NCBI GenBank assembly: GCA_963783375.1
Contig: CAWANH010000017.1
Span: forward strand, 1 to 64,000
DNA length: 64,000 nt
Direction: 5' to 3'
DNA from: Candidatus Eiseniibacteriota bacterium
Lineage (GTDB): Bacteria > Eisenbacteria > RBG-16-71-46 > JABDJR01
Shown here: positions 11,758-23,455 of the stretch, piece after piece
Layout of the letters: each line of letters starts with the position of its first letter
Numbering within the stretch: position 1 is the first letter of the stretch
The notes under the pieces: model-generated
Told to the model about the DNA's origin: nothing
The model's database searches: none
The model's input: the letters and a program-made list of their open reading frames with translations, nothing else
Made by a program: the position numbers and the translations under genes

Positions 11758-11988
11758 ATGAAGGACCTCATCGCCTACATGGTGCGGAACCTGGTGGATG
11801 ACCCCGATTCGGTGGTGATCCGCGAGGTTGCGGGCGACAAGGCCCAGGTATACGAGGTCAAGGTCCGTTCCGAGGACCTCGGCAAGGTCATCGGAAAGCA
11901 CGGGCGGACGATCCGCTCGGTCCGCACCCTGGTCGCCGCCGCCGCCAACCGCTCCGGAAAGCGGGTGATGGTGGAGGTGGTCGAGTAG
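11758..11988 (+). CDS. khpA: KH-domain RNA-binding protein KhpA
   Basis: DLGKVIGKHGRT motif; canonical position between rpsP and rimM. Confidence 0.92.
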   Translation: MKDLIAYMVRNLVDDPDSVVIREVAGDKAQVYEVKVRSEDLGKVIGKHGRTIRSVRTLVAAAANRSGKRVMVEVVE

Positions 11989-21798: not shown

Positions 21799-21992
21799 AA
21801 AAAAAAGCGACCGGCGCCAGTCTCCCCGCGTGCGGCCGTGGGAGCCGGCCGTTCGAATCCGATTCAAAGGTGGGTCCGGGTGGGACTTCCCGACATGCGG
21901 GAGAGGCAACCAGGTCCCAAAATCGGTGTGTTGACTCGAACGACTGGATTCCTCACGGTCCGGGCAGGGAGACTGCCGACGGCCGCGAACAC
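21799..21992 (-). ncRNA. ssrS: 6S RNA-like rod-shaped ncRNA
   Basis: About 190 nt; 5' GCGGCCGTCGGCAGTCTCCCTGC pairs with 3' GCGGGGAGACTGGCGCCGGTCGC; inner stem GTCGTTCGAGTC/GATTCGAACGGC; central bubble; apical stems; ends in U8. Confidence 0.7.
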
Positions 21993-22002
21993 CATGCCCT
22001 AC

Positions 22003-22019
22003 TGCAGGCTCAGTGCCAA
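22003..22019 (-). promoter_or_regulatory. Sigma54 (-24/-12) promoter for the 6S-like RNA
   Basis: Minus strand TTGGCACTGAGCCTGCA = GG-N10-GC; predicted +1 near 21992, just before the terminal stem. Confidence 0.65.
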
Positions 22020-22166: not shown

Positions 22167-22658
22167 ATGCTCGACCGCCTGCTCGAACATCCGGTGGTGG
22201 CCCTCGGGTTCATCGTCATCGTGGTCTTCATGGCCGGGTTCTATCTCATGAACCGGGAGCGGGCCAAGGTGGCCAGGATGCGGGGGCCGACACGCTTCCA
22301 GCCGGACTGGGGCCGCACCTCCCCCACGGGCCGGAGGCGGCGCCGTCGCCGCGCCGGGAGCTTCAGCCCGGAGTGGAACCGGAAATCCCGGACCGCCCCC
22401 GGGGCGTCCGCCCGCGACTCCGCCTCCGAACCGGGCTCCGACCCAACCCCTGGCCCGGCCTCCACCCCGACGCCTGACCTCACCCCCCCCGCCGAGCCGG
22501 CAGGGGTCACGCCGCACGGTCCCGTTTCCGCATCCCGGGTGGAATCGGCCGGGGGAGAAAAGGCGGATCCCCCGGAGTCGGGCGGAGAGGCCTCGGAGGG
22601 CCGGACACCGGGATCCGGGGAGCGGAAAGCGCCAAACGGCGGCACATCCGGCAGCTAG
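22167..22658 (+). CDS. Hypothetical single-TM protein with disordered Arg/Pro/Ser-rich tail
   Basis: One hydrophobic segment (VVALGFIVIVVFMAGFYLM) followed by a low-complexity tail. Confidence 0.6.
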   Translation: MLDRLLEHPVVALGFIVIVVFMAGFYLMNRERAKVARMRGPTRFQPDWGRTSPTGRRRRRRRAGSFSPEWNRKSRTAPGASARDSASEPGSDPTPGPASTPTPDLTPPAEPAGVTPHGPVSASRVESAGGEKADPPESGGEASEGRTPGSGERKAPNGGTSGS

Positions 22659-22947
22659 CTCCCCTCCGGCGACCCGGGGGACCCTCCCCGAAGTGGTTCC
22701 GGCGGCCCCGCCACCGGGTAGGTGCTTTCCACTTTGGCGTATCCGTTTCCACATTCCTAACCCATCCCTTTACAACGACTTAACAACTACAATGCCGAGG
22801 GCTGCGGAATCACCGGCCCGAGGCTTCCCAGTTCGCCCGGCGCCGGCGGGGAAATCCCCGGGAACCGGTTCCCGCCCCGAGGGCACAACCCATTGTCAAC
22901 AAGCAGGTTGAAGCGGTCCATCGGGCGTAGGTTCTGAGGCGGAATAA

Positions 22948-22963
22948 TGGCCCCGAACTTGCT
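22948..22963 (+). promoter_or_regulatory. Sigma54 (-24/-12) promoter for a putative sRNA
   Basis: TGGCCCCGAACTTGCT = GG-N10-GC with TTGC; predicted +1 near 22974. Confidence 0.7.
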
Positions 22964-22972
22964 GTATTAGTT

Positions 22973-23164
22973 ACTGAACGTGGTTGCGAGACCCACGTTG
23001 CGAGAGACAAGCAAGGCACTGGGGTTGAGCGAGACCCAAGCGCGCTTCTCTGAGTCAACTTTGCACCTCCATCGTTCAGGGAAGACAAGCAGCAGCCATC
23101 CATCTCGTTCAGCCTTGGTAGGCGGACCCGGCGGTCGGACACACGCCGGGTCCGCCGTTTCTTT
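22973..23164 (+). ncRNA. Putative unrecognised structured sRNA (~190 nt)
   Basis: Bounded by a sigma54 motif and a terminator; lower GC than flanks; 5' CTGAACG is complementary to CGTTCAG at 23073 and 23106; repeated GCGAGA and AGACAAGCA; no credible ORF. Confidence 0.6.
23121..23164 (+). terminator. Intrinsic terminator
   Basis: 13-bp perfect stem GGCGGACCCGGCG/CGCCGGGTCCGCC followed by GTTTCTTT. Confidence 0.8.
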
Positions 23165-23455
23165 GTCCCAGTCCCTCGCCCCGGATTCCCTCCCTTTCCG
23201 ACCCTCTCATCCAGAAACTCGAAATCGGTATTTCGGCCTTCCCCGCCCCATCCCTCCATTGACCTCAAACCTAAGTCCTGTTAGCGTTTACCTCCGAAGT
23301 CCGCCGGGTTTGCCCGGTTTTCCCCCCGGCGCCTCGGGGACGGCGATCACCGGCTTCCCAGAGCATCTGCCTACGCATTCCGGGTCGCGATCGCGGCGGT
23401 TTCGCCGCCGACGTGGCCGAGTTCCGTCTGCCCGACCGTCCCCGCGTGAGGTGTC

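Follow-up and report, generated by a model that had tools for sequence, protein, structure and literature searches.

The window analysed here, a stretch of 64,000 nucleotides at the start of a Candidatus Eiseniibacteriota contig, holds a small RNA (sRNA) gene of about 190 nt on its plus strand, with meaB downstream of it and a 6S-like RNA paralogue on the other strand (Table 1). The motif in front of the sRNA has the form YGGY-N7-TTGC, reading TGGC-N7-TTGC in the genome to which the window belongs (G000), and we take it, by its geometry, to be a sigma-54-type -24/-12 promoter. An earlier sequence-only reading had assigned the whole of 22948..23164 to the RNA, whereas the first 25 bases are this putative promoter. 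The same reading had closed the RNA with a 13-bp terminator hairpin, and both that stem and its T-rich tail were confirmed. Among nine compared homologues, two-sided changes fall at 7 of the 12 consensus pairs of the terminator, and the plus-strand T-run after the stem is found in all homologues. A simple consensus scan of the region left the sRNA promoter and the terminator both unflagged. RpoN is encoded in the genome according to a genome search, and a GAFTGA-type motif occurs in 20 of its called proteins. Genome-wide, nine intergenic sigma-54-type promoter matches were observed, several of them before genes for signal-peptide-bearing proteins, under a strict filter that excludes the promoters of both the sRNA and the 6S paralogue. 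Several homologues also carry an A+T-rich patch 30-60 bases 5' of the putative sigma-54 promoter (about 22890-22912 in the window). An IHF site is expected at such a distance upstream of a sigma-54 promoter.

Table 1. Features of the sRNA locus and of its surroundings in the window.
Feature	Position	Strand	Basis or remark
KhpA-like KH-domain gene, between rpsP and rimM	11758-11988	+	profile match
6S-like RNA paralogue	21819..21973	-	RF00013, 49.6 bits (gathering 46.4)
Putative sigma-54-type promoter of the 6S-like paralogue, TTGGCA-N6-YTGCA	22003..22019	-	conserved motif
Putative sigma-54-type promoter of the sRNA, YGGY-N7-TTGC (-24/-12)	22948..22962	+	same position in 10/10 homologues
sRNA gene, ~190 nt	22973..23164	+	start inferred from -12 spacing, end from T-run
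5' hairpin and next strand with two GUUGCGAGA copies, predicted seed 1	22977..23008	+	complementary to YCGCAAC/TTGCAAC leader motifs
21-nt segment: single-stranded toehold and 5' strand of the outer stem	23011..23031	+	complementary to FlgD-Ig leader
Long hairpin: outer stem 23019-23034/23103-23118, internal loop, inner stem 23045-23053/23076-23084	23019..23118	+	covariation
Invariant open loop UGCACCUCCA, anti-Shine-Dalgarno-like seed 2	23062..23071	+	conservation, ensemble openness
Intrinsic terminator: 13-bp G+C-rich stem 23121-23133/23144-23156, then T-rich tail	23121..23164	+	covariation, T-run
meaB sigma-70-type promoter, TTGACC-N17-TAG[C/G]GT	23259..23287	+	past sRNA terminator; 9/10 loci tested

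Folding of 22973-23164 on the plus strand gave z = -4.04, with 0 of 200 shuffles as good, compared with z = -2.96 for the opposite strand, and the homologues folded with z values of -2.8 to -5.7 in 10/10 cases (30 shuffles each). A conserved small ORF fails to explain the region, since none with a Shine-Dalgarno (SD)-like site was common to the ten homologues on either strand; a minus-strand frame beginning LTQ is common to G000, G001 and locus L113 only. A gathering-level Rfam scan of the window returned 0 matches, with fast filters that also missed the 6S-like paralogue, and comparison of the sRNA with 4227 Rfam families at E <= 10 produced only four weak chance matches of 12-14 bits. The description as an unrecognised sRNA therefore holds, given the lack of an Rfam match, the ten homologues, and a promoter and terminator of its own; a literature search conducted mostly without subscription journals found no description of it in the sources covered. 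Judged by sequence comparison, the sRNA is a real, new and conserved family without an Rfam counterpart.

BLAST, pattern and covariance-model searches yielded ten distinct copies, located in seven of the eight genomes of the host's family (G000, G001, G003, G004, G006 and G007, with a divergent copy at the syntenic place in G005) and on three metagenome contigs; a fourth contig, identical to one of the three, was left out. The locus in the eighth family genome, G002, stops 359 bases upstream of meaB, short of the sRNA. The lineage hosting the ten homologues is likely Eisenbacteria. When a covariance model (R1) was run over 151 class genomes at E <= 0.05, matches appeared in 11, of which 6 were credible, and none of the credible matches lay outside the host's family; three of six weak matches examined were one gene-end terminator and two coding stretches. 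This range is a lower bound and may exceed the family, because R1 missed the true G005 homologue in the genome-wide search. Beyond the family, a loose promoter-plus-loop pattern applied to 206 phylum genomes did not outperform its control, and the sRNA was not found in G008 or G009. A meaB-anchored contig scan contributed 80 distant loci, which were left out of the analysis.

Within the sRNA, the long hairpin is well supported: 89.8% of 176 cells were paired in its stems, and 17 two-sided changes were counted against 7.6 in shuffles (0/500). Controls slid along the alignment were 43-52% paired, a generous comparison because the stem structure was derived from the same alignment. Stems and terminator both covary among homologues. 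The most conserved part is the anti-SD-like apical loop, absent from the earlier reading: UGCACCUCCA is identical in 9/10 homologues and GCACCUCC is present in 10/10. The loop is unpaired with a probability of 0.63-0.86 in nine homologues and 0.44 in G005, and opening it costs about 0.5 kcal/mol. As the 16S tail of G000 is GAUCACCUCCUUU, the flanks of the loop differ from the rRNA on both sides, while the anti-SD core is common to the two. The 5' domain is variable, usually carrying a GUUGC(G/A)AG hairpin, with GTTGC kept in 7/10 homologues and GCGAGA present in 6/10. In some homologues, inspection by eye suggested that the apical loop might form a kissing interaction with the 5' loop.

The sequence-only reading had built on repeated motifs and on alternative folds. 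All of its motif positions were correct (GCGAGA at 22986, 23000 and 23029; AGACAAGCA at 23005 and 23083; CGTTCAG at 23073 and 23106), and one of the repeated elements does matter, the GUUGCGAGA loop motif being kept across homologues, but most of the repeats are unconserved. Their recurrence lies near chance, with a triple 6-mer in 201 and a double 9-mer in 129 of 2000 dinucleotide shuffles; the AGACAAGCA duplication is found in 1/10 homologues and that of CGTTCAG likewise in one, G000 only. The placement of GCGAGA in hairpin loops held for the first copy (mean unpaired probability 0.74) but not for the second (0.31) or the third (0.01), which lies inside the long outer stem, and the proposed TGGG/CCCA hairpin had a probability of 0 in the ensemble. 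Similarly, the 5' CTGAACG does form a local hairpin (0.5-1.0), but its suggested pairing with either CGTTCAG box reached 0.000 at all seven pairs. The idea of mutually exclusive folds had to be abandoned, given that the alternative pairings have a probability of about 0 in the full-RNA ensemble and are not conserved.

Pairing of the sRNA was scored against the leaders of 3752 G000 genes, with starts taken from a heuristic caller that missed some genes, and seed boundaries were set after the pairing matches were known. The leader with the best score belongs to C3:231128-234466, whose product is a secreted protein of 1112 aa that carries a FlgD-Ig domain at its C-terminus. Segment 23011-23031 and this leader form a predicted ungapped 21-bp helix with three G-U pairs at -41.1 kcal/mol, the next of the 3752 leaders reaching -31.6; on its own this helix score is modest, being attained by 1/56 whole-RNA shuffles and 3/734 shuffles of the 5' domain. 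At an adjacent site spanning the SD sequence of this leader, the apical loop forms 12 more predicted base pairs, bringing the joint two-site score to -65.5 kcal/mol, with the next of the 3752 leaders at -47.9; when the 5' domain was shuffled and the true loop retained, none of 734 runs reached that value. All departures from perfect complementarity in the long helix are G-U-compatible (three in G000, one in G001), which is expected of RNA-RNA pairing and not of a DNA site. Orthologues in G000, G001, G003, G004 and G006 conserve the leader, and its core is also present in G008 and G009; this core was found in 7 of 30 family members examined out of 45 matches, one per genome. Own-genome joint ranks on the G000 background were 1 in G000, 1 in G001, 1 (tie) in G003, 37 in G004 and 271 in G006. 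The 21-bp helix is confined to the closest copies (G000, G001 and L113), and on this leader the own-genome sRNA pairs no better than foreign ones. Cofolding gave a net -7.2 kcal/mol, with 68/600 random leaders as good; loop docking lies beyond what cofolding covers. No Rfam match was obtained in the target leaders apart from a single tRNA, and for the reading of a leader motif as an ANTAR-type hairpin, PF03861 gave no match in a search whose control matched nowhere. The whole 70-base FlgD-Ig leader is nearly invariant across genera (L208, L209, L210, L218, L227), and an element GGGATGGCA..CCATC, about 60 bases before the start, is common to FlgD-Ig leaders and an ANIPD leader (L178).

The second group of matches involves YCGCAAC/TTGCAAC motifs, which are complementary to seed 1 and sit just upstream of ribosome-binding sites. 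Ahead of the SD, the GUUGCGAGA repeats pair with the leaders of a multiheme cytochrome gene and of the MKRV secreted family, which rank 2 and 3, respectively, of 3752 G000 leaders for seed 1; seed 1 also forms a perfect 13-bp helix with the leader of C29:1348430-1349176. For the cytochrome leader, the G000 sRNA ranks 2 on its own leader versus 622 on that of G004, the G004 sRNA ranks 1 on its own versus 19 on that of G000, and the G007 sRNA, from the genus of G004, ranks 2 on the G004 leader; an orthologue of the cytochrome was present in one of five genomes searched. For MKRV, own-genome ranks were 3 (G000), 162 (G001), 3 (G003) and 184 (G004), and seven genomes retain its GCAAC motif in the syntenic gene (28 of 144 matches examined). 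Cofolding singled out the MKRV leader (-18.9 kcal/mol, 1/600 random leaders as good), the sole standout, with the ANIPD leader at -5.5 kcal/mol (145/600). The best ANIPD-family match carries GGAGGTGCAT in six of the seven family genomes with a match, and GGAGGTGCA stands at the ANIPD start in 12/32 members (of 40 matches), namely 11/25 in the family and 1/7 in the sister family; among control orthologue pairs, 5/88 kept at least five bases after GGAG. Overall, the complementarity to leaders is strong in G000, G001, G003 and G004 and the 5' seeds are weak or absent in G005 and G006, where the 5' domains match none of these leaders (ranks 536-3714) and the MKRV leaders keep TCTCGCAAC. Once opening costs were included, the FlgD-Ig, ANIPD and cytochrome leaders ranked 10, 12 and 15, and MKRV 91, of 2836 leaders scanned. 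Genes with signal-peptide-like starts were mildly enriched in a crude test, making up 11 of the 30 top matches compared with 734/2836; the anti-SD loop matches many leaders by construction. A BcrA-like gene at C28:8915, which has a perfect 10-mer site, was set aside after no orthologue was found in the five genomes searched.

Some of these leader motifs also occur beyond the sRNA. The FlgD-Ig leader core and GGAGGTGCA are present in G008 and G009, where the sRNA was not detected, and GCAACGATGGAGG was found in 29/151 class genomes, in other families and partly before unrelated genes (30 loci examined). The motifs may thus be kept for another reason, and they may predate the sRNA. In a protein atlas, look-alikes of two of the target proteins were commonest in Krumholzibacteriota and Eisenbacteria. 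One G000 region (C29:1338000-1353000) holds a cluster of paralogous secreted proteins of the ANIPD and MKRV families, which belong to no Pfam family and were matched 15 times in G000 and as many as 29 times in a relative; the cluster proteins are candidate surface-layer components.

As far as comparative analysis can establish, the sRNA combines a promoter motif, stems, a terminator, an invariant open loop, the absence of a common ORF and complementarity to conserved leaders. We consider it probable, at roughly 70%, that it acts in trans without Hfq, pairing with the mRNAs of secreted surface proteins at their ribosome-binding regions and so blocking translation. In such a scheme, an enhancer-binding activator would turn on sigma-54 transcription from about 22973, and the open loop UGCACCUCCAUCG would dock on SD sequences with matching flanks, as in the FlgD-Ig leader and at the GGAGGUGCA site of ANIPD. 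The 5' GUUGCGAGA repeats and the toehold would pair just upstream of the SD in the FlgD-Ig, cytochrome and MKRV leaders, adding specificity, and in the closest homologues this seed-1/toehold pairing could displace the outer stem of the sRNA itself. Ribosome loading would be blocked as a result, and the envelope proteome would be remodelled under a signal that may also induce the neighbouring 6S-like RNA. Hfq (PF17209) had no match in G000, which is 97% complete, in a search whose control matched 5/14 genomes, and neither did CsrA (PF02599), whose control matched 3/14. A Jag_N (KhpB) gene is located at G000:C28:774849, and with the KhpA-like gene in the window this makes KhpA/KhpB candidate chaperones of the sRNA. 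The sRNA offers specific target predictions, namely that a single leader is paired at two sites and that sRNA and leader change together between genera, as well as a test case for Hfq-independent multi-seed repression with KhpA/B as possible chaperones. The finding also points to the FlgD-Ig protein and to unnamed secreted families as tightly controlled envelope components.

It is unlikely, in our estimation, that the RNA base-pairs but has its real targets among other mRNAs, at broad strong SD sites or on another RNA, with the leader matches partly relics, for instance of an origin of the sRNA as an inverted copy of a secreted-protein leader. The loop alone is invariant, the 5' seeds being absent in G005 and G006; nine leaders outrank FlgD-Ig once accessibility counts; and the target motifs persist in genomes without a detected sRNA, all of which would fit this reading. 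Against it, the joint two-site score on the FlgD-Ig leader lies far beyond shuffles, the cytochrome leader shows an own-genome advantage in two genera, and the long helix departs from a perfect complement only by G-U pairs.

Sigma-54-transcribed sRNAs include Qrr1-5, Pxr and CrcZ, of which Qrr needs Hfq and CrcZ sequesters it. Like these, the present sRNA is a stand-alone gene behind a (putative) -24/-12 promoter; unlike Qrr and CrcZ, it resides in a host without detected Hfq, and it has no Rfam match to any of them.

The closest functional parallels lie among anti-SD sRNAs. NfeR1 (alpha-r14) of Sinorhizobium meliloti is an Hfq-independent trans-acting sRNA whose ultraconserved anti-SD motif, displayed in unpaired loops while the supporting stems vary in sequence, obstructs ribosome-binding sites, those of periplasmic proteins among them; it consists of three hairpins with CCUCCUCCC in each, and its promoter is reported to lack a sigma-54 signature (PMC10746234). 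The present sRNA resembles NfeR1 in its anti-SD open loop and predicted Hfq-independent blocking of ribosome-binding sites, whereas it has a single UGCACCUCCA (CACCUCC) loop in place of three CCUCCUCCC hairpins, and it also has a sigma-54-type promoter and a second seed that is not directed at the SD. RoxS/RsaE and FsrA of Firmicutes use C-rich regions to pair with the SD, in bacteria where Hfq has no global role (PMC8216469). A C-rich region for SD pairing is predicted in the present sRNA too; unlike these RNAs, which are described with several C-rich regions and metabolic targets, it has one C-rich loop and predicted secreted-protein targets, and it differs from them in structure and lineage, with no match to the RoxS/RsaE family model. 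By analogy, the sRNA likely works in the way of NfeR1 and RoxS while standing outside both families. In the literature accessible to us, riboregulation in this uncultured lineage appears undescribed, a search for Eisenbacteria and sRNAs having turned up only CsrA work.

The sequence-only reading had proposed, as one of two options, a protein sponge of the CsrB or CrcZ type, a function that could be carried by GUUGCGAG hairpin loops and the C-rich loop binding KhpA/B or another RNA-binding protein. CrcZ binds Hfq through A-rich repeats, and CsrB and RsmZ carry many GGA motifs in hairpin loops. The recurrence of a GU-UGCGAG-AC hairpin with differing flanking stems in several homologues, the presence of KhpA/B genes and the sigma-54 control in common with CrcZ all speak for titration, but the motif occurs in only one or two copies and is missing from 2-3 of the 10 homologues, and neither CsrA nor Hfq was found. 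The repeats are moreover the reverse complements of conserved leader motifs and not same-sense decoys. Unlike CrcZ, the sRNA does not conserve its AGACAAGCA duplication, and unlike CsrB/RsmZ it has only 1-4 GGA per homologue, and these do not sit in repeated loops. On this evidence the sponge seems to us quite improbable.

A further proposal is that the sRNA arose by duplication of the neighbouring sigma-54-driven 6S paralogue and, as a degenerate 6S RNA without arms, binds RNA polymerase. The two lie back to back, the paralogue being 1 kb upstream and transcribed away from the sRNA, and the paralogue was detected by a lineage 6S model at 8/10 loci, three of which belonged to the training set of that model, the other two loci being too short. 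The 6S copies of the lineage measure about 180, 155, 123 and 93 nt, and the sRNA has a stem-loop-stem layout, short look-alike words (GAGUCAAC and CACCU) and a weak Ms1 match (13.5 bits, gathering 162). Unlike 6S/SsrS, however, the sRNA scores with neither RF00013 nor the lineage model, which was built from 13 6S copies of the host's order: the model gives the neighbour 56-136 bits and the sRNA body no score at all ten loci, so that descent from 6S is unsupported, and its matches at the sRNA are terminator hairpins only, at no more than 6.5 bits. The closing-stem consensus of all 13 aligned 6S copies is missing from the sRNA, and CACCU, fixed in the sRNA, is variable in 6S; we consider this origin highly improbable. 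An RF00013 search over G000 returned nothing, and the notion that the sRNA is the missing 6S was rejected, as the canonical 6S lies elsewhere in G000 by synteny and sequence. Shorter 6S-like RNAs of 93 nt, without an internal stem and followed by a terminator, were seen at L137:762-854 (+) in G007 and L138:677-769 (+) in G004, along with one of 123 nt near meaB in G009 (L136:1293-1415, +); from their sequences, the 6S paralogues appear to form a size series in the host's order.

Control of meaB and the mutase operon by the sRNA as an attenuator, or as the switchable leader that the sequence-only reading also raised, deserves hardly any credence: in every family genome where both were found, the sRNA does precede meaB in the same orientation, but its alternative folds have probabilities near 0 and are unconserved, Rfam gave no cobalamin or other riboswitch match, meaB has its own sigma-70-type promoter past the terminator at 9/10 loci, and among 2836 possible pairing targets the meaB start comes only 225th. 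The promoter motif is absent at the G005 locus, and meaB was not found in the G005 genome. About 40 bases before the meaB promoter, a palindrome-like motif TCCAG-N5-(C/G)GAA (23209-23223 in the window) occurs in G000, G001, G002, G003 and L113, and inverted in G006; it is a possible operator for the mutase operon.

The putative sigma-54-type promoter of the 6S-like paralogue recurs in the copies of G000, G001, G003, G004, G005, G006 and G007, linking sigma-54 to the RNA that adjoins the sRNA. Extending the pairing model, we tentatively raise the idea, which we doubt more than we believe, of a two-RNA sigma-54 module in which one signal fires both the 6S paralogue and the multi-seed sRNA as an RNA-only switch for envelope remodelling. 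If so, the shortened 6S would dampen transcription while the sRNA would silence the multiheme cytochrome and the main secreted surface proteins in an Hfq-less uncultured lineage, its loop docking first and its own stem then being opened by strand displacement. Between the two RNAs lies an ORF of 163 aa (22167-22658, +) that has no Pfam family; its place is conserved across the family, with four homologues, and its product has a run of arginines and, at the N-terminus, a hydrophobic segment.
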